This document shows positions 5,517 to 52,421 of a stretch of DNA of 64,000 nt, piece after piece. How positions within the stretch are numbered: position 1 is the stretch's first letter; the number at the start of each line of letters is the position of its first letter. The stretch is from positions 11,848 through 75,847 of the forward strand of contig DATMBC010000017.1 in assembly GCA_035559435.1 (NCBI GenBank). The letters are read 5' to 3'. The translations under genes were made by a program, and so were the position numbers. Source of the stretch: a bacterium (GTDB lineage Bacteria; Zixibacteria; MSB-5A5; WJJR01). The notes under the pieces are model-generated. The model had not been told where the DNA came from. It saw only the letters and a list, made by a program, of their open reading frames with translations, and searched no databases.

Positions 5517-6491
5517 CTAATAGCGCAGTCGAACGATCCGGCGGATAGCCATGATGCCGATGATCTGCAGGACGAGGGCCCCGACGATCAGATACATGCC
5601 GGCAGGATCGTCATAAAGCACCTTCAGGTACTCGGGATTCAGGAATTGCACGAGGATCGCCATGACCAGCGGCAGAATAACCAGAATCAGCCCGGAGAGC
5701 CGTCCCTGCGCGGTATGAATGCGGATTTCCCGCCGCAGCAGGAAGCGCTCGCGGATCATCCGCGCCAGCATCGCGAGGATTTCGGCGAGGTTGCCGCCGG
5801 TCCGGCGCTGGATCGAAATCGCGGTGGTCATGATCCGCAGATCGTCACTGGGCATGCGCCGCACCATGCTTTCCAGAGCCTGCACGAATTCGACGCCGAG
5901 GTTCTGCTCTTCATACGTGATCGCGAACTCGGTGCCGACCGGATCGGGCATCTCCTGCGCCGCCAGACTCATCGCCGCCTCCAGCGAGAACCCCGACCGG
6001 AGTGCGTTGACGGTCAAATCAATCGCTTCGGGAAGCAGTTCCTCGAAACGGTCAATGCGCTTGGCGCGCCGCCAGAACACCCAGAAAAACGGAATCGGCA
6101 AGATGACGATGAAGGCGAGAAATCCCAGAAGCCGTGATTGCATAAGCAGCGTGATGACCAGCCCGATGACGCTGCCCAGCGAGAGCGCCGCCAGCACCAA
6201 CGCGCCGGCGCGCATCGGCAGCCCGGCCTGGTTGATGACATCCTGCAGATACCGCGCCGAGGTCATCCGCCCGAGCAGGCGGTCGAGGAAGGGGATGGTG
6301 CTGTACGACTGGTCGCGCAGGATGAGGAAGTCTTTTTCCGGCGCCTGCGATTGCCCCTCGACGATGCGGCGCATGCGGTCGCGCAGTTTGCGGTTGCGCT
6401 TGCCCAGACGGTCGTAGGCGACCAGGAAGATCACCAGCGACAGCAGGAAGAAGCCGGCAAAGACGATGATGGCGAGGTACTGCAGGTTCAC
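5517..6491 (-). CDS. tadB: Tad/Flp pilus assembly inner-membrane protein TadB (T2SSF domain)
   Basis: 324 aa polytopic membrane protein. 4-nt overlap with cpaF upstream. Confidence 0.8.
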
Positions 6492-7873
6492 AACGGCGTC
6501 CCTTCCGGATCAAACAGTTCGGTGGGCAACTGGATGCCGGCCGCCGCCAGGTGGTTGACCGCCTTGGGACGGATCCCGGTGGGACGGAACACGCCGAGCA
6601 CCCGTCCGCCTTCGCCCAATCCCTGGCGCTCGAAGCGGAAGATCTCCTGCAGCGTGATCGTGCTCTGCTCCATGCCGACGATCTCGGAGATCGATGAGAC
6701 CCGCCGCGAGCCGTCGCTGTAGCGCGTCACCTGCACCAGCAGGTTGATGCTGCTGGCGATCAGTTCGCGGATGGCGCGTCCGGGAATGTCGATCCCGGAG
6801 AGCAGCATCAGCGTCTCCAGACGCAGCAGGCAATCGCGCGTGCTGTTGGCGTGGATGGTGGTGAGCGAGCCGTCGTGGCCGGTGTTCATCGCCTGCAGCA
6901 TGTCGTAGATCTCGGCGCCGCGCACCTCGCCGATGAGGATGCGGTCGGGACGCATGCGCAGCGCGTTGCGCAACAGATCGCGCTGGGTCACCGTGCCGCG
7001 CCCCTCGATGTTCGGCGGGCGCGTTTCCAGGCGGATCACATGCGGCTGCTGCAACTGCAACTCGGCCGAATCCTCAATCGTCACGATGCGTTCGTCGTCG
7101 GGGATGTAGGCCGAGAGGATGTTCAAAAGCGTGGTCTTCCCCGAGCCGGTGCCGCCGGAGATCACGATGTTCAGCCGTGACTTGATCGCGCCCTTCAAGA
7201 ATTCGAAGAGCGGCGGCGTGATCGAGCCGCGCTCCAGCAGATCCTCGATGCTGAGCACGTTGGTGCGAAATCGGCGGATGGACAACATCGGCCCGTCCAG
7301 CGCCAACGGCGGTATGATCGCGTTGACGCGCGAGCCATCGGGCAGCCGCGCATCGACCATCGGCGAGGCCTCGTCGAGACGGCGTCCGACGCGGGTCACG
7401 ATCCGGTCGATAATCTTCATCAAGTGGTCGTTGTCCTTGAAGCGCGTCTCGGTCAACTGCAGCTTGCCGCCCTCTTCGATGTAGACCTGGTTGTAGCCGT
7501 TGACGAGGATATCGGAGACCTCCGGGCGGTTCATGTACTGCTCCAGCGGCCCCAGGCCGAGCAGCTCGTCGCGGATTTCGGTGATCAGCCGCTCCTTGAC
7601 CTCGGGGGTCAGGTTGAGCCCTTCTTCGAGGAGCAGCGACTCGGTGACACGGCCGATCTGCGACTGCAGGACGGTGCGGTCGACGGTGATCAGGACGGAG
7701 AGGTCGAGTCGGTTGATCAGGGTCTGATGGATGTGGGATTTCAGCTCGCCGAAGGCGTCGCGTTTTTCGGCCGACACCGGAGCAGCCGGGGCGGTCTGGG
7801 ACGCCGGTTTGGCGGGCTCGCGCTTTTCGGACGCGGGCGGACGACCGAATCCTGATCGTGGACGAAATGCCAT
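6488..7873 (-). CDS. cpaF: Tad pilus secretion ATPase CpaF/TadA
   Basis: Walker [13 protein letters not shown] plus Asp box and His box motifs of T2SS/T4SS E-type ATPases. 461 aa. Confidence 0.9.
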
Positions 7874-7896
7874 GATTCGCTCCTGCCGGACGTCGC

Positions 7897-9045
7897 TTAA
7901 TTCGCCGGCGCCGATCCGTTCGGCGACATGGACATGCGCGCCATTTCGCTCAGACTGCGTGCGACGTTCGACTTCTGGTTGCTGATCACCAGCGGCTCAC
8001 CGGCGTTGATCGCCTCGATCACCGTGCGGTAGTCGCTGGGAATCCGGTATGCCACCCGGCAGCCCGCGGTCTCGCAGAACTGCTCCTCGGAGATGGCGTC
8101 TTTGCGCGAAACGCGGTTGAGGATCACCTTCACCTTGTTGTCGTCAAAGCCCAGCGACCGGAACACCTGCAGCGCGTAGCGCGTGGCCCGGATCGTCGAC
8201 AGTTCACAGGTGGCCACCAGCAGGATGCGGTCGGCGATCTGCAACGCCTCGTAGGTGTAGGCGTCGAAGGTATGCGGCAAATCGAGCACCACGTCGTTGT
8301 AGGAATCCCGCAGGTGGGAGAGCATCTGGCTCAACTGCTTGGCGGTGATCCCCTCGGACGTACTGGTGACTTCCTTTTCGCCCAGGTAGAGAAGGCCCGA
8401 CTTGTGCCGGATCAGCGACCCCTGCAGGCGGGCGGGATCGACCTCGCCGCGCGGATCGAGGATGTCGGTCATTCTGAAATCCGGTTCGAGGTCCAGCTGG
8501 CTGGCCACGTCGCCGATGTCGAAGGCCAGATCGGCGATGACCGTCTCGCGTCCGGCGGCGGCCAGTGCCACCGCCAGATTGACAGCGATGGTGGTGACTC
8601 CCAGTCCGCCTTTCTTGCTGAAGACGGCGATCACATTGCCGGCCGAGCGGGCGTGGGCGGTCTCGGCCTCGATCAGACGGACCACCCGGTCCAGCGCGCT
8701 GTGCAGTTCCTTCACTTCCAGCGGCTTCGACAGATACTCGCTCACCCCGGAGCGGAAGGCCGTTAAGATGAGATCCGGCGTCTTCGACGCCGAGGTGGCG
8801 AAGATGCGCAGTTGGGGATGCTCCTTGCGCCAGCGGTCGGCCGCCGCCAACGCCTCATCCGGGCGTGTGGGCAACTCGAGAAAGACCAGGTGCGGACGCG
8901 TGCGCAGGAGCAACTCCTGCGCCGCCGCGAAGTTTTCCGCCTCGCCCACCAGCTCGACGCCGGGGAATCCCTTCAGTTGCTGGCGCACCGCCTTGCGGAA
9001 TCCGCCATCGGAATCCACAATGATGGCCGTAACGTTAGGTCCCAT
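7897..9045 (-). CDS. cpaE: Pilus assembly protein CpaE/TadZ (N-terminal receiver-like domain plus ParA/MinD-like ATPase domain)
   Basis: REC-like N-terminal domain (IIVDSD...LVFLEL) followed by deviant Walker [10 protein letters not shown]. Confidence 0.85.
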
Positions 9046-25275: not shown

Positions 25276-25680
25276 ATGGAATGCCAATTCCCCAAGCAAG
25301 CTGCATCGCTGGAGTCCATCTTCGAATTTGTCAGCGAATTGGCCAACCGGCACGGCGTATCCGCCGACATCACCCGCGAGATGCAATTCGCCATCGAAGA
25401 GATCTTCACCAACATGGTGCGATACAACACCGAAACGCACAACGATGTGACGATCGATGCCGACGTGGCCGACGGCGTCTTCCGTGTGACGCTGGCCGAC
25501 CGCGACGTGCACTCCTTCGACCCAACGCAGCGTCCGCCGGTGGACACCGAGCGCCCCCCGCACGAACGCACACCCGGCGGCTTGGGAATTCATCTGGTGC
25601 GGCAGATGATGGATGATGTCCGTTACGAGTATGTCGACCGCACCGCGCGCATCACATTGATCAAACGTCTGGAGACCTGA
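25276..25680 (+). CDS. Anti-sigma regulatory factor, serine protein kinase (RsbW/SpoIIAB-like HATPase_c)
   Basis: 134 aa. N-box EEIFTNMVRYN and G-box PGGLGIHLV. Confidence 0.8.
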   Translation: MECQFPKQAASLESIFEFVSELANRHGVSADITREMQFAIEEIFTNMVRYNTETHNDVTIDADVADGVFRVTLADRDVHSFDPTQRPPVDTERPPHERTPGGLGIHLVRQMMDDVRYEYVDRTARITLIKRLET

Positions 25681-25682
25681 CC

Positions 25683-25964
25683 ATGCTCAAGGTTGAACTG
25701 GCCGACAAATCCACCATCGTGCTTACCGGTCGATTCGACGCCTCCCAGGTGTCGCAGGCCGACCCGGTCTTCGACAGTCTGGAGGGCAACAGCGTGCTGG
25801 ACTGCCGGGGCCTGGACTACATCTCCAGCGCTGGCATCGGCGTGGTTCTCGGCGCCTACAAACGATTGCACGAACAGGGGCACACCCTGACCATGATCAA
25901 TGTCAACGACCACATCCGTCAGGTCTTCCGCTATGCGGGCCTGGACAAGATCATCAAGATGTAA
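25683..25964 (+). CDS. STAS-domain anti-sigma-factor antagonist (RsbV/SpoIIAA-like)
   Basis: 93 aa. Conserved phosphorylatable Ser in LDYISSAGIGVVL. 2-nt gap after the kinase gene. Confidence 0.8.
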   Translation: MLKVELADKSTIVLTGRFDASQVSQADPVFDSLEGNSVLDCRGLDYISSAGIGVVLGAYKRLHEQGHTLTMINVNDHIRQVFRYAGLDKIIKM

Positions 25965-26194: not shown

Positions 26195-26752
26195 ATGGCT
26201 GTCATTATGTCGACGTTCGATGACCAGGCACTGGTGAGAAAGTGCCTTGCCGGCGAAACGGAGGCGTTCGGGGAATTGATCGATCGTCACCAACGGGCGC
26301 TGTTCAACACGGCCCTGCGGATGACGGGTGACAGCGAAGAAGCCGCCGACCTGACGCAGAGCGCCTTTGTCAAGGCCTACGAGAAGTTGGACAGTTATCG
26401 ACCCGAGCACAAGTTCTTCAGCTGGATTTATCGGATTCTGGTGAACGAAACCATCAACGCGCTCAAACAGAGGAGACAACAGCAGGGATTGGACATGGAA
26501 CCGGAATCGTCGGACCCGACGCCGGATGAACTGCACGAGACCAATGTCCGCAATCTTCGCATCGAGACGGCCCTGCGCGAGTTGTCCTTCGACTACCGGT
26601 TGGTGATTGTGTTGCGCTACTTCAACGATATGAGCTACCAGGAGATGAGCGAGATTCTCGCCGTGCCGGAGAAGACGGTCAAGTCGCGGCTTTACACGGC
26701 GCGTCAGAATCTGGCAACGATCCTGGGACGGATGGGAGTGGTGACGCCGTGA
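26195..26752 (+). CDS. ECF (group 4) RNA polymerase sigma-70 factor
   Basis: Region 2 (FGELIDRHQRALFNTALRMTGDSEEAADLTQSAFVKAY) and region 4 HTH (YQEMSEILAVPEKTVKSRLYTARQNL). An alternative ATG lies at 26207. Confidence 0.9.
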   Translation: MAVIMSTFDDQALVRKCLAGETEAFGELIDRHQRALFNTALRMTGDSEEAADLTQSAFVKAYEKLDSYRPEHKFFSWIYRILVNETINALKQRRQQQGLDMEPESSDPTPDELHETNVRNLRIETALRELSFDYRLVIVLRYFNDMSYQEMSEILAVPEKTVKSRLYTARQNLATILGRMGVVTP

Positions 26753-27522
26753 TCGAAGAACGTCTCCTGCATCTGATTCACCGGGCGGCCGACAACGCGC
26801 TGTCCGAGCGCGAGCGGACCGAACTCGACCGCCGTCTGCAGGACTCACCCGAGGCGCGCCGGCTGTACGAACAGATTCTCGGATTGAAGGATCTGGCATC
26901 GGCGGTGCCATCGGTGGAGCCGCCGGCCGCGTTGAAGTCGCGCATCCTGGCGCAGATCGATCCGGCGCGGTATCGCCGGCGCACGGCCGATTCGCGGACG
27001 ATCGCCGGCTGGATCGGCCATCTGTGGACGCCGCAACTGGCCTATGGTCTGGCGGCCGGGCTGATCCTCGGCATCGGGGTGGCGACGCTGACCCACAACG
27101 CGAGCGTCGACCCGTTGAACCCGCGGGACCTGTCCGGCACGATCCTGCGGCAGCAGCCATCGACGCTGTCGCGGATCGACGCCGACGCCTTCACCACCGG
27201 CCAGGCGACCGGCCGGCTGGCCGTGGACGCGGGCAATGGACTGACCTATGTCCAGATCGCGTTGGAATCGTCGTTGGAAGTCGCCGTGGTGCTGGAGTTT
27301 GACGAAAGCGCCTTGGTCGCCCGCGCCTACGAGCAACAGCAGCCGCAGGCGGGCAACATCACCGCCGCCCCCGGACGGATCACTGCCACCCACTTGGGAC
27401 AGAATCGCTATCTCTTTGTGCTGGACCAGATTGCCGACACCGACCGGCCGCTGGTCTGCCGCATCGAATCCACCGGGCAGATCTACCAGCGCGAAATCCG
27501 CCTCCCTCGGCAGGGCGATTGA
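26749..27522 (+). CDS. Membrane-spanning ECF anti-sigma factor
   Basis: GTGA overlap with the sigma gene. N-terminal anti-sigma helix region, single TM (LAYGLAAGLILGIGVATL), and a C-terminal extracytoplasmic domain of about 150 aa. Confidence 0.75.
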   Translation: MIEERLLHLIHRAADNALSERERTELDRRLQDSPEARRLYEQILGLKDLASAVPSVEPPAALKSRILAQIDPARYRRRTADSRTIAGWIGHLWTPQLAYGLAAGLILGIGVATLTHNASVDPLNPRDLSGTILRQQPSTLSRIDADAFTTGQATGRLAVDAGNGLTYVQIALESSLEVAVVLEFDESALVARAYEQQQPQAGNITAAPGRITATHLGQNRYLFVLDQIADTDRPLVCRIESTGQIYQREIRLPRQGD

Positions 27523-42754: not shown

Positions 42755-42869
42755 GGGGATGTGAGCGGGAAGTAAGGTAGCCAATCGGCGCGGCGGCGGC
42801 AAGCGGCGGCCGGGATGGTTGCCGAGGGTGTTGGTTCGTACCCGGTGATCATCTACATTGTTCCCCGTC

Positions 42870-45296
42870 ATGCGCCGCGTCCGCTTCCACCATCTGCCTG
42901 CGCGCCCGCTTCGAGGACTCTGGCTGGCGACGCTGACCATGCTGGTATGGACCGCGACGGGAGCGACTCAGCCCCTCGATCTGCTGCAACCACACTCCCC
43001 GCTCTCCGGCCGCGATGATTCATCCGGCCCGCGGGTGGCGTTGGCGCTGGCCGGCGGGGGCGCGCGCGGGATCGCGCACATCGGCGTTCTGCGCGCCCTG
43101 GAAGAACGGGGGATCGCCGTAGACCTCATCTGCGGCGTCTCGATGGGCGCCATCATCGGCGGCCTGTACGCCTCCGGGATCAGCACCGACTCCCTCGAAG
43201 CGCTGGTGCATCGCGTCGATTGGGATCGGCTGCTGCAGAACACCCCGTCGCGGGCCCAACTGCTGCTCTCACAGAAAGACGAGAGCGCCGAGTGGTTCTT
43301 CAGTCTGCCTCTGCGGGGGCTTGAACCGGTCTGGCCCACCGGCGCCACGTCGGGGCAGGGACTCTACAATTATCTGATCTCGCTGACCCAGCGCGCCACC
43401 TACCTGTCGCAATCGGATTTCGACCATTTGCCGACGCGATTCCGCGCGGTGGCCACCGACCTGATCACCGGAGAACGCGTGGTGCTTGCGCGCGGCGGCC
43501 TGGCCGCGGCCTTGCGCGCGTCGATGGCCTTTCCCCTGGCCGTCTCGCCGTTGCGTCTGGATGGCTACCTGCTGGCCGACGGCGGGTTGATCGATCCGCT
43601 GCCGGTCATTCTGGCCGATTCGCTGTCCGACTGCCCGGTGGTGGCGGTCAACACCGCCTCGGGCATGGCGCCGGCCGATAAGCTCGATGATCCCTACGCG
43701 CTGGCCAATCAGGCCACGACCGTCATGACGCATGAGCGGTTGGCGCGCGCCTGGGCAGCCGCCGACTACCGCTGCGCACCGATCGGCGATGAGCTAAGCA
43801 ACGTCGATTTCGATCGGGTCGATTCGCTCCTCGCCCTCGGATACCGTGCCGGCCGCGTGTTGGCCGACGAGATCCACGCCCGGTCCGAGCGACTGCCGCT
43901 GGTGGCGATCGCGGGGGCCGAGCCGATTCGTTACCGGGTCGACACGGTGATCCTCGCCGGCCACAGCGTCATTGCCGATTCGGTCCTGCGCGCGGCGCTG
44001 GCGCTGCGGCCCAGTCAACGGTACACGGCCGCCGAATTGCGGGCGGCGATCCGCCGTCTGGAATCGGCCTACACCGCGCGCGATTTCTCGCTGGCCGCCG
44101 TCACGCATGCCGCGCTCGACAGCGCGGGCGCGCTGGCGGTCACCATTGACGAGGCGCGTTTGGCCGGCATCAAACTCGACGGCAACCGCACGGTCAAAAG
44201 CTGGGTCATCCTGCGCAGTTTCCCGCTGAAGATCGGCACGCCGTTCAATGCCGCGCGGATGGCGCGCGGCCTGGCCGACATGCACGCCACCGGGCTGTTC
44301 GAGCAGGTCACCAGCGAGGTCGTCCATTCCCCCAACGGTCCGGTGGTGCATCTGACGGTGACGGAAAAGTCGACCGACGCATTGCGCCTGGGGTTGCATC
44401 ACAACCTCGAGTACCAGACCGAGGGGTTCATCCAATGGGCGAAGACCAATCTGTTCGGGCTGGGCAACGAACTGACCGCGCATGCGCAGTACGCGCCGCG
44501 CCGAACGCTCTATTTCGCGCGGCTTAAATCGGACCGGATTTTCCGCACCTATCTGACCGCCTCGCTGCGGGTGTACCACCACAAGCACGAGCGCTTTCCC
44601 TATCGCGACCACGAACGTCTGCCGTCATTCATCACGACGCGCGATGGGGTCGAGTTCTCGATCGGCCAGAACATCTCGCGTTTCGCGCAGATGTCGCTTC
44701 TGGTCGGCGCCGAGAACATCGATCACGAGATCGACTCGGTCGAGACCGAGTACCGCCATTCGCGGATTGCGGCGGTGGCGCGCCTGGACGATCTCGATCA
44801 TGCCGAATTCCCCACGCGCGGCCGGCGGTTGAGGGCGCAGTTGAGTTGGGGGGATGACTTCTTCGACGGCGACCTGGTCTACCGCGCCTTCACTGCCGAC
44901 GGCGAGTGGTTCCATTCGCCGGGCAAACGGCTCACGCTGTCGATTGGCGCGCGCTTTGGCTCCGCCGACCGGGTCCTGCCGATGTTCGAGCGCTTCTCGC
45001 TGGGAGGACGCCGATCCTTCATGGGACTGGCCGATGACGAGTTGCTCGGCGACCGTCTCGTGGCCGGCTCGTTGGGGGCGCGCTACCAGTTCCTGTCAAT
45101 CGGCTATGCGACGGGGCGCGTCGATCTGGGCAACGCCTGGTCCAAAGGCAGCGACATCGATTTCTGGGGCGCCTTGCGCGCGGGGGTCGGAGTCGGACTG
45201 CTGTTTGAGACGCCGCTGGGGCCGTTGGCGCTCGCCTATGGCCTGGCCGACCGCGGGTACACGAAGTTCTATTTCAGCTGGGGGCACGACTTCTGA
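42870..45296 (+). CDS. Patatin-like phospholipase fused to POTRA/Omp85 (D15 surface antigen) beta-barrel; PlpD-like type Vd secreted protein
   Basis: Signal peptide. GGGARG and GVSMG patatin motifs with DGG. Long C-terminal beta-barrel ending ...YFSWGHDF (aromatic C-terminus). Confidence 0.8.
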
Positions 45297-45876: not shown

Positions 45877-46177
45877 AACGATTCAGACAACTGTATAATT
45901 GGAGTTGCGGGCACGTCTGCCGATAAGTATGGTGTGACGTGTCCGTCGACGTTTGCGCCGGACCGCATGCCGACAAGTCGATGTGGCATAATTGCTTACG
46001 CCAAGAGATCGGTGGGGCGGCAAATTGATCGCAAACTGAATTGGTCTTGTTTCGTTTAGTCTTTTGAGGCAACCTGTGGTGGTGAGAACGCCCACCATAC
46101 TTTCGACACATCCCGCTTGGGCCGTTGTTGGCCTGGGCGGGACTTTCACTATAGATCTCCCCTCAAAGGAGGGAGCC

Positions 46178-46429
46178 ATGACCACCGCCCCGCGGTGCGA
46201 GGCGTGCGGCATGCCGATGTCACGGCCGTCACAGCACGGCAACGGCAATTCCGGCGGCCGTCTCTGCATCTACTGCACCGATCCGGCGGGCAACCTGAAG
46301 CCCCGTAGTGAGATTCGGGAGGGAATGATCCAGTACACGATGAAGCTGGAAAGCTGGACCCGCGAGAAAGCCGAGCAGGAAGTCGACCGTCAGATGTCGT
46401 ATCTCCCCGCCTGGCAGAATGTGGGATAG
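46178..46429 (+). CDS. Small zinc-ribbon (CxxC ... CxxC) domain protein, 83 aa
   Basis: AAAGGAGGGAG RBS. MTTAPRCEACGMPMSRPSQHGNGNSGGRLCIYCTDPAGN... with two Cys pairs. The track ORF starts at 46064 but the RBS supports 46178. Confidence 0.65.
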   Translation: MTTAPRCEACGMPMSRPSQHGNGNSGGRLCIYCTDPAGNLKPRSEIREGMIQYTMKLESWTREKAEQEVDRQMSYLPAWQNVG

Positions 46430-46612: not shown

Positions 46613-49111
46613 TTACAGCCCCTTCGGCAGACTATCGGGCACCCAGCCGGTGCCGTCCCACCCACGCACGGCGGCCTGAAGGTCACGGAAGTACTCTGGC
46701 CAGAGCACGTCCGGGAGTTTCCCTTCGCGGACGAGCATCTCCCGCCGGGCCTTATAGGCATCTTCTACATCGACTCGGTTCACTCTCAGCGAATCGTCCA
46801 AGTAGTAGTAGATTTGCCATGACATTTCACGCCCGTCCTCGCCGGGAACTCCCCCTTCCCGCGTGTTCAGACGCATCCCGACGCTCGAAACGTCATAGAT
46901 GCCTCCGTATGAGTTGTAGATACGGTAGCCGTAGACCAGCGTCAGATCGGAAGGGGGAAACAGCATGTAGCGCATCTGATTCCCAGGGATTACCCGCGAC
47001 ATGTCGTACTGCTCGTCCTGGTAGGGCGGCGACACGCCCTCACTGCCACGCGCTTTCAGGACGAATAGAGCGACCGAACGCATGCGGATGTTGTATCCCG
47101 GAAAGACCAGGTCATCGGTGCCGTCGCCGTCGAAATCCCGTGCCAGTCCCTGGGATACGACACCGGCGTTGACATACCATCCCAGCAATTCCCCCTGCGC
47201 CGACCAGATCTTCACATGGAATCGCGACGGGTTCTGTCCGTTGGCGCCGGTGATGATGAGCGGCGCGCCCTGAACTTCCACGATCTGCAACAAGCCGGGC
47301 GTGTAGACTTCCTGGCCCTCGTAATCACCGGGGTATTGGCCAAGAATCCGGGCGTCCAATCGGAAACGCAGCGTGCCATCGTGATTGAAGATGTCGATGC
47401 GCGCCTGATCCTGCGATTCGCGGCCCGTGGAAACATAGAAACCCGCCTCGTTTTTCCCGTCCCGATCCAGGTCGTAAACCACTTTCGGACAGTCATTCTC
47501 AAGTGTGTCCGGAAGGTATACGTGGTCCCACACCACGCGCCCGTAGCGGTTCAGGGCGACGATGCCGTTGCGGCGTTGCTCGAGATTGACAATGTGATCA
47601 TCGATCACTGACCGCAGCCAGGGCCAGACAAGCCAGCCGAGGATCAGGCAAAGAACCGCGAACGCCGGCGCCTGCACTTTCACACTTCGGCCATACTTTG
47701 CCGCGGCAAGGACGGCGTACTCGCCCAGACAGACGCGTTCGGGGAGAAAGATGTAGTGATCCGCGATCAGATCGGCGGCGCGCTCGATGCCGATGATCCG
47801 CAGCCGCCGGGCGGGGTGCTGTAGACGTAGCGTCTCGACCAACGCTTCGGCGGCCGCGCGATTGGCCTCCGGCAGCGCCAGCGCGCTGATCGGCGAGAAG
47901 AAGACGCGCTCGACCTTGCGGGCCAGCGAGGCCTCGCTGATGGCCGCGGCGCGTCCATCCGGCTCGAGCGCGCCGCTGAGCGCGACATCGGCGGATATCA
48001 GGCGTCGCTCACGGTGCAGCGTCCGCGACCAGTGATCGCCAAAGGCGGTGGCCAGACAGGCAAAGCCCAGCGAATCGCCGCCGTAGAGTTCGCGTCCATG
48101 GTCCAGGAATTCGAAATGACCGCGCAGCGGGGAGCCATGGGCCGACGATCGGACACGCGACTCGGGCCCGGATGTCCCGTTGAGGGGTGCTTGGCCGGCA
48201 CGAGTAGATCGGGACGGCGTCGATCGACCCGCGCCCCCCGCGCTGTCGGCAGCGGCTGCGGCCGGTCCGGCTTTCGATGAGCTCCGGCGGGTGAGTTCGC
48301 GCAACGCCGTCAGGGCCGCGTAGGCCCCGGAAATCTGGGTGTCGTCGGCGCCGCGCAACTGATGGGCGAACACCACCTGATCGGCGCCGTTGTCCCCGGC
48401 GATCGACTCGATGGCTCCGCGCAGGCGCCGGAGCCGTCCGCGCACCGGGCGCATCAGGCCATCGTATTCGATCAGCGCGCAGAGCGCTTCGTTGGCCACG
48501 GCGCTTTCGCGATCGGCCTGCCACCGGGCATCAAACCGCACCAGCCAGTCCATCAGCGTATGGCGCGCCTCCGCGCTCCCGACCGACGCGCGCGGCTCCT
48601 CTGAGTGGGCGATCGCCAGCGCGTCGATCAGCCCCTGGGGCAGTTCGAGCGCGTCATCGCAGATGACCGTGGGCGGTTCCTCGCCCATGTCGGCACCGTA
48701 GGGGGTGCGGCGAAGCGCCGCCCAGGCCCGTCCCGCCTCGCCGACATACATCCAGCCACGCGCCGCCATTTCCCAGACCGTGTCCGCGGTCATTGCGGGC
48801 ACCAGATGGCGGGACACTGCCTCGAGGAATGCGGCGATCTCTTCCAATTCGGCAGGCAGCAGGTCCTGGAGATCGGGCGCGACCGCCAGCAGAGTGGGCA
48901 GGTCTTCGCGCCAGTAACTCTCGTACGAAGGATCGCCGAGGGCGGCATGGCGCGGCAACCAGAAACGGGCGGCGGCCAGAAGCCGGGCGTCGGCAAACGG
49001 CGTCGTCATGGCCAGTTGGCGATAGGCCTGGTAGTCGCGGGCAAACGCCAGCGGGGAGTGCGATGACGACGATTGCGGCATGCGGGAAAGATACGCTGGA
49101 TTCGCGGTCAA
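46613..49111 (-). CDS. 832-aa transmembrane protein: cytoplasmic N-terminal region with a Lon-protease-like (S16) Ser-Lys segment, one TM helix, periplasmic FG-GAP/VCBS-like beta-propeller region
   Basis: GGDSLGFACLATAF...ISADVALSGAL...EASLARKVERVFFSP aligns by eye to Lon KDGPSAGIAMATAL...KDVAMTGEI...GGLKEKLLAA (candidate Ser347/Lys399). TM at about 481-499 (AFAVLCLILGWLVWPWL). C-terminal DLDRDGKNE and DFDGDGTDDLVF Ca-binding FG-GAP-like loops. ATGA overlap with the upstream anti-sigma gene. Confidence 0.5.
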   Translation of the reverse strand: MTANPAYLSRMPQSSSSHSPLAFARDYQAYRQLAMTTPFADARLLAAARFWLPRHAALGDPSYESYWREDLPTLLAVAPDLQDLLPAELEEIAAFLEAVSRHLVPAMTADTVWEMAARGWMYVGEAGRAWAALRRTPYGADMGEEPPTVICDDALELPQGLIDALAIAHSEEPRASVGSAEARHTLMDWLVRFDARWQADRESAVANEALCALIEYDGLMRPVRGRLRRLRGAIESIAGDNGADQVVFAHQLRGADDTQISGAYAALTALRELTRRSSSKAGPAAAAADSAGGAGRSTPSRSTRAGQAPLNGTSGPESRVRSSAHGSPLRGHFEFLDHGRELYGGDSLGFACLATAFGDHWSRTLHRERRLISADVALSGALEPDGRAAAISEASLARKVERVFFSPISALALPEANRAAAEALVETLRLQHPARRLRIIGIERAADLIADHYIFLPERVCLGEYAVLAAAKYGRSVKVQAPAFAVLCLILGWLVWPWLRSVIDDHIVNLEQRRNGIVALNRYGRVVWDHVYLPDTLENDCPKVVYDLDRDGKNEAGFYVSTGRESQDQARIDIFNHDGTLRFRLDARILGQYPGDYEGQEVYTPGLLQIVEVQGAPLIITGANGQNPSRFHVKIWSAQGELLGWYVNAGVVSQGLARDFDGDGTDDLVFPGYNIRMRSVALFVLKARGSEGVSPPYQDEQYDMSRVIPGNQMRYMLFPPSDLTLVYGYRIYNSYGGIYDVSSVGMRLNTREGGVPGEDGREMSWQIYYYLDDSLRVNRVDVEDAYKARREMLVREGKLPDVLWPEYFRDLQAAVRGWDGTGWVPDSLPKGL

Positions 49112-49962
49112 ATCACAAACAGGCGAATTTCGATGGGTTCGTCGCCGACGACCTGAGTCGAGACCGGTTCGTGCCGGGAGGAGGACTCGCCGACACGCCA
49201 GTGGCCGCCCATCTGACTGACCACAATGCGCACGTGCGCAAATTCGGTCTGGCCGCCGATCTCAAGCGGCCGGATCTGCAAGGTGACGCCATCGCCCGCA
49301 TCGCGCAGGATCGCCTCCACACGGTTGCCGTCGGGGCTTTCCAGCACTTGCCCTGCACCCTCGGCGGATCGGTTCCACCAGTCCAGCGGCGAGAGCGTGA
49401 AGGTCGCATCGGGGAGACGGACCTGCCAATGGATCCCGACGGGGTCGCCCTCCAGCCCGCCGCTGACTTCGGCGATGCCGCGCTCATCGGTGAGGAAATC
49501 CCGGTCCGGATTGTCCAGATGAATGTACACATGGCGCGCATGCGCAGTGTCGGCGCCGGACAGATGGAGGATGTCGCGGTGGCCGTGCGGGTCATGCATG
49601 ACGCGCAGGACCAATTCGGGATGTTCGGAGTAGAGCGTGGCGCGATGGGTCCAGCCGGGTCCCACGGCCGCGTTGCCGTCGGCGGCCAGCGCCATGGGCG
49701 TCGCCGGTGTCGTCGCGATGGCCAGGGGCGCCAGCGCGACATGCCGCGGCACAGACCTCAGGGTTTGCAAAAGCAAGCGCGCAAACGGCGGCAACGGGAC
49801 TGGCGCGGCCACCGGCGCGGCGAGCCATTCTTCGATGATCGCCAGCTCGTCGGCGCAATGCGGGCAGGCGGCCAGATGCGCGGTCAATTCGGGCACTCCC
49901 GCGCGGCCATCCGGAGTCAGACGGGCATATCGAACCAGATCGTAGTCGCTTGGATGCGTCAT
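49108..49962 (-). CDS. Anti-sigma factor with N-terminal zf-HC2 zinc-finger motif
   Basis: LTAHLAACPHCADELAIIEEWL contains the H-x3-C-x2-C anti-sigma zinc-finger signature. 284 aa with a beta-rich C-terminal domain. Confidence 0.65.
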   Translation of the reverse strand: MTHPSDYDLVRYARLTPDGRAGVPELTAHLAACPHCADELAIIEEWLAAPVAAPVPLPPFARLLLQTLRSVPRHVALAPLAIATTPATPMALAADGNAAVGPGWTHRATLYSEHPELVLRVMHDPHGHRDILHLSGADTAHARHVYIHLDNPDRDFLTDERGIAEVSGGLEGDPVGIHWQVRLPDATFTLSPLDWWNRSAEGAGQVLESPDGNRVEAILRDAGDGVTLQIRPLEIGGQTEFAHVRIVVSQMGGHWRVGESSSRHEPVSTQVVGDEPIEIRLFVI

Positions 49963-50034
49963 CTATCCACTGTCCCCGCGATAAAAATAGCCGCCAAACG
50001 GCCCTCCTGTGGCCGTCCGGCGTGTTCCACTGGA

Positions 50035-51069
50035 TCAGTCATCGCGCCGACCGGATTCCATGCGCTCGCTCACCTGCTGCTTGCATTTCTTCACCAGCGT
50101 GTCCCAGATATACTTGAAGCGGCTGGCGTACAATTCGTTAGAAACATCCCCCAGTTCTTCCCGCAAATAGACCGGCAACAGGTCGTGGCTGCCATGCTCG
50201 ACCCAGTCGGCGGTCAGGTTGTGCATGGCCTGAACGAAGGCCGCGTGCTCGGCGTCGGTCAGGCCCTGACGCTGGGCCAGACGGGGCAATTCCGCCTCCA
50301 GCAGATCCGCGGCAACCGCCGCCACGATGACGCGGAAACGGCGGCGCAGATACTCGGTCTGGGCGTCAAGCTGCGGCGGGTCCGGTCGGTATTCCGGCTC
50401 TGCCAGCACATCGTCCAGTCCGTGGGCCAGCGCATACACGGTCAGCGAATTGCGCCAGTTCCGGCTCTGGTCCAGACAGGCGAAGATCACACGGCAGTAC
50501 TCGGGGATGTTGCGCTTGTCGCGGACGGCTTCGTACGCCCACTGCCGAAGCGCGGTGCGATCGGCGCAGGGCGCATGGTCGCGCGGGCCATCCTTCGCCG
50601 GCCGCCAGCGCCACTCCGGCTGGCTGTGGCCGTTGAGCATTGCGAATTCATCCGGCGCGCTGATCAGCGCGCGGCGCACGCCGCGCAGGATCTGTGTCCA
50701 CGAAGGGTCGCATGTCACGTCGATGCGCGGGATCCGCTGACGCACCTGCCCGCAGATGATGGCGCTGAATCGGTCGCTGAGTTCCTTGTCGGGGACGTCG
50801 CGGTAGGGTGACAAGTAACTCGCCAATTTGGGAACACCCGTGCGGGGGTCGGGCGCGAGCATTTCGGCCACGCAATCGATCGCCAGGTCGCCGAGCGCAT
50901 CCTCGCCGCCGAATTCGGACAGCGGCAGGGGGCGCCGGTTTCGGAGGACACTCAGATAGGCTCGGGCCTCATTGGTGGCCAGCATGAAGACCGCCTCGAC
51001 CAGCACAGGGTCCGACGCGGACCTGAGGAATCGGCGGAGAAGTTCGGCAATCGGTTGCGGATCACGCAT
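50035..51069 (-). CDS. Hypothetical 344-aa protein upstream of the anti-sigma factor (no recognisable sigma-70 regions)
   Basis: Long intact ORF in a consistent operon position. No motif recognised. It occupies the slot where a cognate sigma factor would normally sit. Confidence 0.4.
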   Translation of the reverse strand: MRDPQPIAELLRRFLRSASDPVLVEAVFMLATNEARAYLSVLRNRRPLPLSEFGGEDALGDLAIDCVAEMLAPDPRTGVPKLASYLSPYRDVPDKELSDRFSAIICGQVRQRIPRIDVTCDPSWTQILRGVRRALISAPDEFAMLNGHSQPEWRWRPAKDGPRDHAPCADRTALRQWAYEAVRDKRNIPEYCRVIFACLDQSRNWRNSLTVYALAHGLDDVLAEPEYRPDPPQLDAQTEYLRRRFRVIVAAVAADLLEAELPRLAQRQGLTDAEHAAFVQAMHNLTADWVEHGSHDLLPVYLREELGDVSNELYASRFKYIWDTLVKKCKQQVSERMESGRRDD

Positions 51070-51184
51070 GGCACAGCGACCGCGGAAAGCACGTGATTGG
51101 TTACAGCGACCTGAATAAACAAAACGGACCGGGTTGGGGACAACCCCAAACTCGGCCCGTGTGACAGACTTGCGGGTGCGGCGG

Positions 51185-51841
51185 CTACAGTGATTTGCCG
51201 ATGCGCTCCCACCGGGTGCTGGTGGGGAAATGCGCCAGATTGTAAAACGGAATGGTCAATAGCGGCAGAATGTAGGGGCTCTCCCATTTGGGGGCGTCGG
51301 GATCGGGTTCCCAGGACCAATAGATGAACATCGCCTTGCCGCGGATGAGGTCCTTGTCGAGGAAGCCCCAATCACGCGAATCGCGGGAGTTGTCGCGATT
51401 GTCACCCATGACGAACAGATGTCCGGGCGGGACCACCGCCGGGCCGAAGTTGTCGCGGTTGGACAACTGCGCCGGGAGGATGCGTGTGTCGGTGTACATG
51501 ACTTCGTCGGGAACCGGCGCCGGCTGCCCGTTGACATAGAGCACCTTGTCGCGCACTTCGACGGTCTGGCCTTCGACGGCGACGCAGCGCTTGACATAAT
51601 CCTTGGCCGGATTGAGCGGATACTGGAACACCACGATGTCGCCCGGCTTCGGCTCGGAAAAATGGTAGGCGAACTTGCTGACCAGGAGATAATCTCCGGG
51701 CAGCAGGGTGTTCTGCATCGATTCCGACGGAATGCGGTAGGCCTGCACCACGAAGGCGCGCAGGACGACGCCAATGATCAGCGCGACCAGAATTGCTTCC
51801 AGGTAGTCGCGCGCGGCGCTGCGTGTGGGTTTTGCCAGCAT
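51185..51841 (-). CDS. lepB: Signal peptidase I
   Basis: Catalytic Ser region IPSESMQNTLLPGDYLLV, Lys region KRCVAVEGQTV and GDNRDNSRDSR box. Start taken at the MLAKPTR ATG; the track ORF runs to 52252 via a TTG. Start position is uncertain by 2 nt: the displayed sequence places the ATG at 51837-51839, out of frame with the track ORF. Confidence 0.85.
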   Translation of the reverse strand: MLAKPTRSAARDYLEAILVALIIGVVLRAFVVQAYRIPSESMQNTLLPGDYLLVSKFAYHFSEPKPGDIVVFQYPLNPAKDYVKRCVAVEGQTVEVRDKVLYVNGQPAPVPDEVMYTDTRILPAQLSNRDNFGPAVVPPGHLFVMGDNRDNSRDSRDWGFLDKDLIRGKAMFIYWSWEPDPDAPKWESPYILPLLTIPFYNLAHFPTSTRWERIGKSL

Positions 51842-52052
51842 ACGAAATCCTCGGTGGACGATGGCCGCCGCCAGACCCGGAGAGCGGCCCGCCTTTTGAC
51901 TACATCGGCTGAAAGTCTCAATCCGTTTAGCGGGAATCTGACAGGTTAAGGCGCTGGACGCCAAGGGGCTGGCGAACCGGGGCCACAAAAACGCTCGGCG
52001 GGAGTAAATTTTTGCGCAACCACTGCATCGATCAATGCGTATATACGCATGA

Positions 52053-52421
52053 ATGCATATGAAAAAACCGGACCCATCACCCCAAGTGCCGCCCGAGGCG
52101 CTGCGCGCTTTGGCCGACCCCACGCGCATGAAGATCATGCTCATGCTCGAGGGGCGGCGTCGCACGGTCGGCGAGATTGTCGCGTTCTTCGAACTCTCGC
52201 AGCCGACCATCTCCCGCCATCTGCGGACACTGGCCGAGGCGGGGCTGGTCAAACGCGAGAAATCGGCGCAGAAAGTCTATTACTCGATCAACGGCGATGT
52301 CTTAAGCCAGATCTGCATCGGCCTGGCGACGAGCTTCCCCTGCTGCTGCGTGACGGTGGTTCCGCAACGGGAGGCGGCAGCTTCGTCGGAGGCCCACCCG
52401 CGGAAAGGAGGAAAGCGATGA
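52053..52421 (+). CDS. arsR: ArsR/SmtB-family metalloregulator
   Basis: HTH ALADPTRMKIMLMLEGRRRTVGEIVAFFELSQPTISRHLRTLAEAGLV. C-terminal Cys cluster CCC. Confidence 0.85.
   Translation: MHMKKPDPSPQVPPEALRALADPTRMKIMLMLEGRRRTVGEIVAFFELSQPTISRHLRTLAEAGLVKREKSAQKVYYSINGDVLSQICIGLATSFPCCCVTVVPQREAAASSEAHPRKGGKR

Follow-up and report, generated by a model that had tools for sequence, protein, structure and literature searches.

A module of three genes, encoded on the minus strand of a 64,000-nucleotide stretch of Zixibacteria DNA (the window; contig DATMBC010000017.1), is conserved in bacteria of the FCB group, namely Zixibacteria, Bacteroidota and MAGs labelled Ignavibacteria. Its third product is a single-pass membrane protein that joins a cytoplasmic domain with the predicted fold of Lon proteases, and no ATPase, to an extracytoplasmic FG-GAP-type β-propeller; the second is a soluble protein with an anti-sigma-like N-terminus. 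We give about an even chance to the reading that the module is a transmembrane signalling system, in which the sensor-protease cleaves the gene 2 protein and thereby frees the gene 1 protein. Literature searches on Lon-like domains with anti-sigma factors, the ECF/Lon context, FG-GAP domains with anti-sigma factors, and Zixibacteria sigma factors found no description of this module, nor of an FG-GAP propeller paired with anti-sigma factors.

Organization and conservation of the locus

The open reading frame list of the window contains three consecutive minus-strand ORFs of 344, 284 and 832 aa (Table 1), as an earlier sequence-only reading had reported. The neighbourhood that this reading suggested checking is indeed kept together across the loci compared: gene 2 is second in all triad loci, and a conserved partner gene always precedes it. 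However, the ATGA overlap described between genes 2 and 3 is an error. Gene 2 ends in ATT TGA (49110-49108), and an overlap with this end arises solely if gene 3 starts with the TTG at 49111 (TTGA). Because the start of each of the 14 aligned homologues coincides with Met11 (ATG at 49081), and NCBI gives the protein a length of 822 aa, the two genes are probably separated by a 26-nt spacer; consequently, the proposed translational coupling is not borne out. Residue numbers given here for gene 3 are those of the 832-aa ORF, from which 10 is subtracted for the 822-aa protein.

Table 1. Positions of the genes of the module and of their features within the window
Feature	Position	Strand	Description
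Gene 1	50035..51069	minus	344-aa soluble all-helical protein; member of a large family without annotation; perhaps a divergent output protein of sigma-like type
Terminator-like hairpin and T-run	49992..50022	minus	Spacer between genes 1 and 2; particular to this window
Gene 2	49108..49962	minus	ORF for 284-aa soluble two-domain protein with N-terminal zinc-binding anti-sigma-like domain
Anti-sigma-like domain	49825..49962	minus	Residues 1-46; putative Zn ligands His3, His29, Cys33, Cys36
Putative Zn-ligand codons	His3 49954-49956; His29 49876-49878; Cys33 49864-49866; Cys36 49855-49857	minus	
Pro/Ala-rich variable linker	49690..49824	minus	Residues 47-91; candidate protease-accessible segment
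Invariant LAADG	49675..49689	minus	Residues 92-96, junction of linker and C-domain; hypothetical cleavage between LAA and D
Conserved C-terminal domain	49111..49689	minus	Residues 92-284; proposed docking/recognition domain for gene 3
Gene 3	46613..49111	minus	832-aa ORF, probably 822 aa from ATG 49079-49081; single-pass membrane protein
N-terminal all-helical cytoplasmic domain	48506..49054	minus	Residues 20-202; AF2 helices; no ATPase motifs
Lon (S16)-like protease domain	47687..48499	minus	Residues 205-475
Disordered insert in Lon-like domain	48137-48277	minus	Residues 279-325
Ser347 codon (TCG)	48071..48073	minus	Candidate catalytic nucleophile; invariant; at N-terminus of helix 345-363 in the AF2 model
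Lys399 codon (AAG)	47915..47917	minus	Candidate catalytic base; invariant
Single transmembrane helix	47603..47671	minus	Residues about 481-503
Extracytoplasmic domain	46616..47599	minus	Residues 505-832; FG-GAP-type β-propeller and C-terminal α/β subdomain

The spacer between genes 1 and 2 holds a hairpin with a 12-bp stem, 9 GC pairs and the tail GCTATTTTTA (RNAfold -31.4 kcal/mol, z = -2.75). This hairpin is not conserved, since most of the equivalent spacers at 10 other loci have z values near 0. No promoter motif common to the gene 1 upstream regions of 12 loci emerged beyond the shuffled expectation; ATATT, present in 7 of the 12, equals the 95th percentile of the null. Adjacency to lepB was considered as a functional link and rejected, because lepB is missing from paralogous and distant loci and a terminator-like site lies 3' of it.

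Two loci (L014 and L019) carry a two-gene variant, in which a zinc-finger anti-sigma domain, a transmembrane helix and an extracytoplasmic sensor domain are fused. The loci that lack the C-domain of gene 2 are precisely those in which gene 3 lacks its helical and Lon-like domains; thus, this C-domain and the protease part of gene 3 co-occur and are lost together. Family sizes depend on the method: a word-indexed homologue search badly under-reported them, giving 17 matches for gene 3 and, although a profile was used as well, 3-4 for gene 1. An exhaustive HMMER search corrected this for gene 1, whose family comprises over 500 clusters at the 50% identity level, Bacteroidota being among its lineages.

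Searches of Pfam, NCBIfam and PADLOC with the three window proteins returned no significant family and no defence-system match, and PDB searches with single sequences and whole-protein profiles gave nothing or sub-threshold matches. Since no Lon or zf-HC2 model exceeds its threshold on these proteins, the assignments below rest on predicted structures, on profile comparisons and on residue conservation. All three proteins lack a curated family model, and naming the families would annotate many genes now called "hypothetical."

The Lon-like domain of the gene 3 protein

A resemblance of part of the gene 3 protein to the Lon catalytic region had been noticed by eye, and the motifs in question are present: GGDSLGF (with Ser347), ALSGAL (Ser379-Gly380) and ARKVERVFFSP (Lys399). 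The segment is predicted to have the fold of the Lon proteolytic domain. In the AF2 model of the protein (mean pLDDT 82), most of residues 329-470 have a pLDDT of 80-97, and the top Foldseek matches of the domain in the PDB are Lon proteases (3k1j at E=1e-7, 6on2, 7ypk and 7sxo), with a target-normalised TM score of 0.72 to the protease domain of BsLonBA. In a PDB search with the domain profile, the archaeal LonB protease domain is the sole family matched (E=0.04), and Lys399 falls on the catalytic lysine of LonB, the K in VTQKIEAA. Furthermore, hhalign aligns the family with the P-domain of E. coli Lon at E=9.7e-5 over 80 columns. Here S347, S/T379 and K399 fall on Lon S679, T704 and K722, and the GDS of the window protein falls on the GPS at Ser679. 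Judged by this register, the protein carries a putative Ser-Lys dyad and a conserved Thr/Ser at Lon-homologous positions.

The conservation of this region is far beyond chance. Eight residues (Gly345, Ser347, Arg367, Gly380, Lys399, Arg402, Ser406 and Pro414) are unchanged in 15 of 15 aligned homologues, down to 33% identity, as well as in all 10 loci compared, very divergent ones included; position 379 is Ser or Thr throughout the family. The expected invariance of Ser347 and Lys399 is therefore found. The companion expectation of an S16/Lon HMM match is not borne out at threshold level: Lon_C (PF05362) has no match at E<=1 to the window protein in Pfam or NCBIfam, and its best score in the family, for the L018 homologue, is 14.5 bits against a cutoff of 21.1 (E=0.026). 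However, the predicted fold, the profile comparison and the conserved dyad all point to Lon.

There is no ATPase module. Walker A is found in 0 of 15 family members, and no AAA Pfam model matches the window protein. The N-terminal helical domain, modelled mostly at pLDDT 85-96 (AF2), has no Pfam match. The lack of Walker A and AAA, together with this all-helical domain, makes the protein comparable to AAA-less S16 proteins such as YlbL rather than to LonA or LonB.

Membrane topology and the extracytoplasmic propeller

The single transmembrane helix seen by the sequence-only reading is the one hydrophobic segment of the protein. Its hydropathy is 1.9-2.6 in all gene 3 family members, with the second-best segment below 1.6, and by hydropathy none of them has an N-terminal signal-like segment. 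The N-side flank of the helix contains 2-5 K/R versus 0-1 D/E, and the C-side is neutral or acidic. These charges indicate an N-in, C-out topology, placing the Lon-like region on the cytoplasmic side, where it had been supposed to lie. Neither outcome named beforehand as refuting the sequence-only reading is seen, as Ser347 and Lys399 are invariant and the Lon-like region is predicted to face inward.

The C-terminal part has two of the DxDxDG loops previously noted, DLDRDGKNE at 547-555 and DFDGDGTDD at 659-667, which are of the Ca type; Asp551 and Glu555 are invariant among aligned homologues. The Pfam FG-GAP model is sub-threshold on the window protein (E=0.089), and FG-GAP_3 passes on the homologous domain of L019 (29.9 bits versus a cutoff of 26.9). 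The propeller also has a profile match to Bap1 (6mlt, E=0.024), and Foldseek matches it to Bap1 at 1e-4 and to BBSome and integrin alpha. By profile, structure search and homologue HMM match, the domain belongs to the FG-GAP/integrin-alpha-type β-propellers.

The anti-sigma-like protein

The H-x3-C-x2-C motif attributed to gene 2 is HLAACPHC at residues 29-36. HxxxCxxC occurs in 12 of 12 distinct family members; in the five aligned homologues His29, Cys33, Cys36 and also the upstream His3 are invariant. Alignment with ChrR by hhalign (E=1.6e-3) places these residues on H6, H31, C35 and C38, the confirmed zinc ligands of ChrR (PMC6852236). At the level of sequence, then, the N-terminus has the ligand pattern of a class I ZAS, H-x3-C-x2-C with an upstream His, and would bind zinc. 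Pfam zf-HC2 (PF13490) does not match the window protein and reaches E=0.01-0.08, below cutoff, in homologues; the NCBIfam anti-sigma model NF052375 gives E=6e-4, with 19.8 bits against a cutoff of 100.

There is no transmembrane segment in gene 2 (maximum hydropathy 1.46). The linker is 43% Pro+Ala, and 4% of its columns are invariant versus 33% in each flanking domain. At its end, LAAD followed by G or T stands at the same position in 12 of 12 distinct family members, often as YALAADG. The C-domain motifs ATLYSE.PE, TDE.G.AE and LPDA.F.L.PL are strongly conserved, even in AT-rich distant genomes.

The gene 1 protein and the question of a sigma factor

The sequence-only reading saw no sigma-70 regions in the 344-aa protein, and no sequence relationship to sigma factors has been found. 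Pfam sigma models match 0 of 116 gene 1 family members, and an NCBIfam sigma model matches one of the 116, at E=0.06. With hhalign, the family does not rise above reversed controls against E. coli RpoE, FecI, RpoS, RpoH and FliA or the ECF sigma of the window. The sequence signatures of Sigma70_r2 and r4 are absent from the gene 1 protein.

The description of the anti-sigma gene as an "orphan" is questionable. As stated, the module has no canonical sigma gene next to it; the closest one lies at 26195-26752, about 20 kb off, and this ECF sigma was rejected as a partner of the module because an anti-sigma gene of its own, encoding a membrane protein, overlaps it. However, in every locus the gene 1 protein takes the place of a sigma factor, and its predicted fold may be sigma2-like. 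The model is weak because it was folded with a 4-sequence alignment; its central ~120 residues have a pLDDT below 50, and Foldseek on it was uninformative. Gene 1 may encode a very divergent sigma-like factor, so that the anti-sigma-like protein may have a partner after all; were it a true sigma factor, few known ones would diverge as far. It is improbable that there is no transcription switch at all, with a gene 1 protein that is not sigma-like and a zinc finger that serves as a general protein-binding module in an envelope-related proteolytic pathway, such as one that controls the adjacent genes for secreted or surface proteins at another level.

A model for signalling

In the proposed model, the extracytoplasmic Ca-binding propeller of gene 3 would sense an envelope or external cue. 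The anti-sigma-like domain of gene 2 would keep the gene 1 protein inactive, and its C-domain would dock on the cytoplasmic helical/Lon part of gene 3. A signal at the propeller would then turn on the Ser-Lys domain in the cytoplasm, which would cleave the gene 2 protein within or at the end of the linker, possibly after the invariant LAA, exposing a C-terminal degron of the ClpX type. Once the gene 2 protein is cut, the gene 1 protein would be freed. The degron idea is modelled on ssrA and RseA. That the gene 3 protease degrades the co-encoded anti-sigma, as first suggested from the sequence, is a step that we infer, and one that the fused two-gene variant makes more plausible. A fuller version is distinctly less likely than the outline: a propeller ligand triggers, across the single transmembrane helix, ATP-independent clipping by the Lon-type domain between LAA and D, creating an ssrA-like degron for ClpXP and freeing a new class of sigma-like factor, in a system widespread in Bacteroidota, Zixibacteria and related lineages.

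Alternatively, the locus could encode a split anti-sigma factor that works without proteolysis, gene 3 tethering gene 2 to the membrane and signalling by conformation through a non-catalytic Lon-like scaffold. The Lon-like domains of RadA/Sms and ComM are such non-catalytic binding scaffolds, and inactive RadA is among the best structural matches of the gene 3 domain (5lkq, target-normalised TM 0.69; also 5h45); moreover, the fused variant has a sensor and an anti-sigma-like domain in one chain with no Lon domain. However, Ser347, Thr/Ser379-Gly380 and Lys399, which align with the Lon dyad, are invariant in very divergent members. Loss of the dyad is typical of inactive Lon-like domains, and gene 3 keeps it; we judge this alternative to have a small chance of being correct.

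No greater weight is given to the possibility that the protease acts on another substrate, either the 344-aa protein as a pro-protein or its own disordered insert, with gene 2 as a regulator or adaptor. The poorly modelled centre of the gene 1 protein and an insert of variable length among homologues inside the Lon-like domain would suit such a role, but the low gene 1 pLDDT may merely reflect the 4-sequence alignment. In addition, it is the gene 2 protein that has the clearest exposed, unconserved linker, next to an invariant junction motif, and whose C-domain is kept or lost with the protease part. Finally, the literal GDSLG string of the window protein has next to no chance of marking a GDSL/SGNH lipase rather than a protease, because some members have A or N in place of Asp346 (G-N-S in L018), the predicted fold is that of Lon, with no SGNH hydrolase among the Foldseek matches listed, and the motif register fits Lon, including T-G, K and P..N.

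Comparison with known systems

Among the ways in which bacteria signal across the membrane, the regulated proteolysis of anti-sigma factors takes a central place. In the known routes, the anti-sigma factor spans the membrane and is cut by distinct site-1 and site-2 proteases, as in the σE route of E. coli, where RseA is processed by DegS, RseP and ClpXP. The proposed model is similar in that an extracytoplasmic cue would cause an anti-sigma domain to be destroyed and its partner to be set free, and the C-terminus left by a cut after LAA, if it occurs, would resemble the VAA degron that sends RseA to ClpXP. However, RseA spans the membrane and is cut by separate S1 and M50 proteases. In the present module, the anti-sigma-like domain belongs to a soluble protein, and sensor and putative S16-type protease form one polypeptide whose catalytic domain is cytoplasmic. 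The three genes include no homologue of DegS, PrsW or RseP. The same logic would thus be wired differently, and the module points to a new proteolytic route for relaying envelope signals.

ChrR, the partner of σE in Rhodobacter sphaeroides (ECF11), is a soluble two-domain ZAS with an N-terminal H/H/C/C domain and a C-terminal signal-response domain, and its activation involves anti-sigma proteolysis (PMC6852236). Gene 2 is likewise soluble and two-domained, with its zinc anti-sigma-like domain at the N-terminus. However, its C-domain is unrelated to the cupin of ChrR, its gene 1 partner is no recognisable ECF sigma, and a protease candidate is co-encoded, whereas none has been identified for ChrR. 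For one system, the module would therefore supply a candidate explanation of the way in which ChrR-like, soluble anti-sigma factors are degraded.

YlbL (DdcP) of Bacillus subtilis is a membrane-anchored Lon-domain protease with a Ser-Lys dyad, no AAA+ and a specific regulatory target; its Lon and PDZ domains come after an N-terminal transmembrane segment and lie entirely outside the cell, and its substrate is a checkpoint protein of the membrane (PMC6051672). Gene 3 shares the membrane anchor, the Lon-type dyad register and the lack of an AAA+ module. However, its Lon-like domain is cytoplasmic, lies N-terminal to the transmembrane helix, between the helical domain and the propeller, and fails to match the Lon_C-type Pfam models that YlbL matches. 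With archaeal LonB, which is also membrane-bound, and bacterial LonA (MEROPS S16), it shares the predicted proteolytic-domain fold and the register of Ser, Thr and Lys; unlike them, it has no AAA+ ATPase or Lon N-domain, carries a large disordered insert in the protease domain and is too divergent to reach the Lon_C cutoff.

The classical single-pass ZAS anti-sigma factors are of the RsiW and RslA type, and the two-gene variant has exactly their layout. In the window, by contrast, this layout is divided between two proteins and includes an inserted protease domain, and the sensor is an FG-GAP propeller. The natural fused and split versions would thus provide a comparative handle for experiments.

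A Lon-like domain in a membrane protein

The product of gene 3 had been read by eye as a Lon-like Ser-Lys protease domain joined by a single transmembrane helix to an external FG-GAP-like sensor. Searches of the three window proteins with Pfam, NCBIfam and PADLOC yielded nothing significant: neither Lon_C nor zf-HC2 matched at E<=1 (Pfam/NCBIfam), the FG-GAP match stood at E=0.089, an NCBIfam anti-sigma model reached E=6e-4 at a score far under its cutoff, and PDB sequence searches with single window proteins gave no matches. The Lon_C match to be looked for according to the sequence-only reading did not materialize for the window protein; in a fused homologue (see below), the propeller passes Pfam FG-GAP_3.

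A word-indexed search retrieved 17 homologues of gene 3, one of them named Zixiibacteriota, and none of the 17 has a Pfam domain. In an alignment of 15 sequences, with identity down to 33%, the putative catalytic pair Ser347 and Lys399 is invariant, together with Gly345, Arg367, Gly380, Arg402, Ser406 and Pro414, and the same eight residues are unchanged in 10/10 loci compared, including AT-rich distant genomes. Asp346 is A or N in some homologues, which argues against a GDSL-lipase motif at this site. With a profile of residues 322-484, the sole PDB family found at E<=10 was that of the proteolytic domain of Archaeoglobus LonB (E=0.04), in which the catalytic lysine, the K of VTQKIEAA, aligns with Lys399. 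Comparison by hhalign with the E. coli Lon protease domain, whose motifs are textbook, gave E=9.7e-5 over 80 columns in the register GDS347/GPS679, T379-G/T704-G, K399/K722 and P414..N417/IPFEN. Furthermore, a Bacteroidota-type homologue (locus L018) scores E=0.026 with Lon_C, short of that model's cutoff. A Walker A motif was found in no member of the family; consequently, the protease-like part would have no ATPase.

An AlphaFold2 model built with the family alignment (mean pLDDT 82) contains a helical domain (residues 20-202), a mixed alpha/beta domain (208-278 and 329-475) broken by a disordered insert, and, on the C-terminal side, a transmembrane helix, beta-rich propeller-like strands (509-720) and an alpha/beta subdomain extending to ~825. 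The best Foldseek matches of this model in the PDB are Lon proteases (3k1j, E=1e-7; 6on2; 7ypk; yeast PIM1; human LONP1), with TM 0.72 for the BsLonBA protease domain and 0.69 for the RadA Lon-like domain; beta-propellers follow (Bap1, 1e-4; BBSome; integrin alpha). As had been noted from the sequence, there is one hydrophobic segment (~481-503), and there are DxDxDG-type loops, of which two were counted. Throughout the family a single transmembrane segment, an N-terminus without a signal-like segment and a net-positive N-side flank place the Lon-like domain in the cytoplasm and the propeller outside. In terms of predicted fold and of the register of catalytic residues, the architecture seen by eye is correct, although the family does not pass the curated Lon_C HMM.

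The disordered insert is Ser/Ala/Gly/Arg/Pro-rich and is lodged inside the Lon-like domain, after the N-terminal subdomain of the latter and before the strand that runs to the putative catalytic Ser. The insert is highly variable in length and nearly missing in some homologues; autoprocessing or regulation are conceivable roles. In locus L009 two overlapping ORFs cover the gene 3 homologue, a sign of a frameshift that could reflect a pseudogene or an assembly error; the database counterpart of this homologue, P0015, has only 466 aa.

Gene starts and the zinc-finger protein

The three minus-strand ORFs lie where they had been placed, and the motifs quoted for them are all present (HLAACPHC in gene 2; GGDSLGF, ALSGAL and ARKVERVFFSP in gene 3). 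The ATGA overlap claimed for genes 2 and 3 is wrong, as gene 2 ends in ATT TGA and could be overlapped solely by a TTG start at 49111, giving TTGA. The aligned homologues of gene 3 all begin where Met11 lies (ATG at 49081), and the NCBI call is an 822-aa protein; thus, the two genes are most likely 26 nt apart. The 832-aa numbering has been retained for comparability.

In gene 2, His3, His29, Cys33 and Cys36 are invariant among aligned homologues, and hhalign against a ChrR sequence (E=1.6e-3) places them on His6, His31, Cys35 and Cys38, the documented ligands of the ChrR anti-sigma domain (PMC6852236). HxxxCxxC is present in 12/12 distinct family members collected, and no transmembrane segment was found in the protein. 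A Pro/Ala-rich, essentially unconserved linker (residues 47-91) leads to a C-domain (92-284) that is strongly conserved, distant genomes included. The junction bears an invariant LAAD[GT], often as YALAADG. The C-terminal LAA of the ssrA tag is a ClpX recognition element, and RseA cleaved by RseP ends in VAA; by this analogy, a cut after Ala94 would, purely hypothetically, create a degron.

Conservation of the module and a natural fusion

The three family HMMs, run against every ORF of each locus collected, recovered a conserved neighbourhood: the order gene 1-gene 2-gene 3 occurs in the window, L001-L011, L013 and L017, and a compact triad (344, 205 and 718 aa) in L018. In L012 and L016 the sequence ends after gene 2. 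L003 is a second copy of the module within the same MAG, in an unrelated context, and L013 and L018 are from AT-rich genomes with T9SS cargo genes near the module. The module has a solid architecture, one that is both conserved and widespread.

A different layout is seen in L014/L015 and L019 (a Bacteroidota MAG). There, the gene 1 homologue is followed by a gene whose product carries H3/HxxxCxxC, a transmembrane helix and the extracytoplasmic domain known from gene 3, with likeness to gene 3 running to the C-terminal motif YF..L...V.YW.G..W. This fused protein is without the gene 2 C-domain, the helical domain and the Lon-like domain. Through this fusion, zinc finger and propeller sensor are linked to a single pathway. 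In addition, the C-domain of gene 2 is present or absent together with the helical and Lon-like domains of gene 3, which suggests that the two parts interact.

A model for the module and its alternatives

These three unannotated protein families may constitute a variant of regulated anti-sigma proteolysis, a function that is proposed here. In this model, the propeller would sense an extracytoplasmic cue, and the signal would pass the single transmembrane helix to the cytoplasmic Ser-Lys domain. Once docked, the 284-aa protein would be cut by this domain, either within its exposed linker or where the linker ends, with LAA|D as a possible site. The zinc-finger fragment would then be cleared and the 344-aa protein set free, its activity perhaps being that of a sigma-like factor. 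YlbL, a membrane Lon-domain protease without an ATPase that acts on a specific regulator (PMC6051672), provides a precedent for the protease, and ChrR, a soluble two-domain ZAS proteolysed upon a signal by an unknown protease (PMC6852236), for the substrate. Literature searches turned up neither an anti-sigma factor paired with a Lon-domain sensor-protease nor anti-sigma sensors of FG-GAP type. Alternatively, gene 3 may be a protease with another substrate, either gene 1 or gene 3 itself, or a non-catalytic tether, or the module may have a non-transcriptional role.

Genomic context

In agreement with the earlier statement that no sigma gene is adjacent, a canonical one borders the module in none of the loci examined. 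The single canonical ECF sigma gene that the window contains (phmmer E=2e-23 against E. coli RpoE) was rejected as a partner because a membrane anti-sigma gene of its own overlaps it; immediately upstream lie two small genes, by eye RsbW-type anti-sigma kinase-like and STAS anti-anti-sigma-like.

Directly upstream of the module, on the same strand, is lepB, which is syntenic in most Zixibacteria-type loci. It is missing from paralogous and distant loci, and consequently the two are probably neighbours by inherited synteny, not by function; given the terminator-like site after lepB, the module is probably transcribed separately from it. A common promoter motif upstream of gene 1 was looked for in 12 loci and not found. 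The strong hairpin in the spacer after gene 1 (RNAfold -31.4 kcal/mol, z = -2.75) is confined to the window, as most of the corresponding spacers in 10 other loci do not conserve it; thus, it may be a lineage-specific attenuator that sets how much of gene 1 is made relative to genes 2 and 3. Zixibacteria-type spacers seem to share a short CCTATC-like motif ~30 nt upstream of gene 2, then a long purine-rich (GGGAGG-type) ribosome-binding site. This arrangement may serve as an internal promoter or in translation.

The module is often followed, in the same orientation, by a gene for a secreted or surface protein. The proteins are an FG-GAP protein, Laminin_G_3, or T9SS cargo with Por_Secre_tail, Dockerin, Fib_succ_major or InhA-like MAM/Big_1, and their genes are candidate regulated targets. 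The window has no such gene there; a convergent Zn_ribbon_2 gene takes this position. A fusion of a patatin-like phospholipase, POTRA and an Omp85 outer-membrane barrel is kept beside the module in L001, L004 and L006.

Coordinates of the module, its surroundings and features of homologous loci
Feature	Sequence	Coordinates	Strand	Remark
Gene 1, 344 aa	window	50035-51069	minus	ORF
Gene 2, 284 aa	window	49108-49962	minus	ORF
Gene 3, 832 aa	window	46613-49111	minus	ORF
Gene 3 insert, residues 279-325	window	48137-48277
lepB, signal peptidase I	window	51185-52252	minus	Peptidase_S26 E=3e-52
Terminator-like hairpin after lepB	window	51131-51146	minus
Terminator-like hairpin + T-run, gene 1 stop/gene 2 start spacer	window	49992-50022	minus	12 bp, 9 GC
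ECF sigma gene, 185 aa	window	26195-26752	plus
ECF sigma gene + 257-aa anti-sigma gene	window	26195-27522	plus
RsbW-type-like and STAS-like genes	window	25276-25964	plus
Zn_ribbon_2 gene	window	46064-46429	plus
Patatin-POTRA-Omp85 fusion, 812 aa	window	42858-45296	plus
Gene 3 homologue	L009	5986-8432		ORFs 5986-7392 and 7383-8432
Spacer with CCTATC-like motif	L001	5077-5135
Spacer with CCTATC-like motif	L003	5044-5108
Spacer with CCTATC-like motif	L004	4877-4939
Spacer with CCTATC-like motif	L006	4921-4976
Spacer with CCTATC-like motif	L010	3447-3516
Secreted/surface gene	L003	8513-9928
Secreted/surface gene	L004	8481-9263
Secreted/surface gene	L006	8391-9242
Secreted/surface gene	L013	8312-10603
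Secreted/surface gene	L018	4439-6904
Secreted/surface gene	L019	4496-7714
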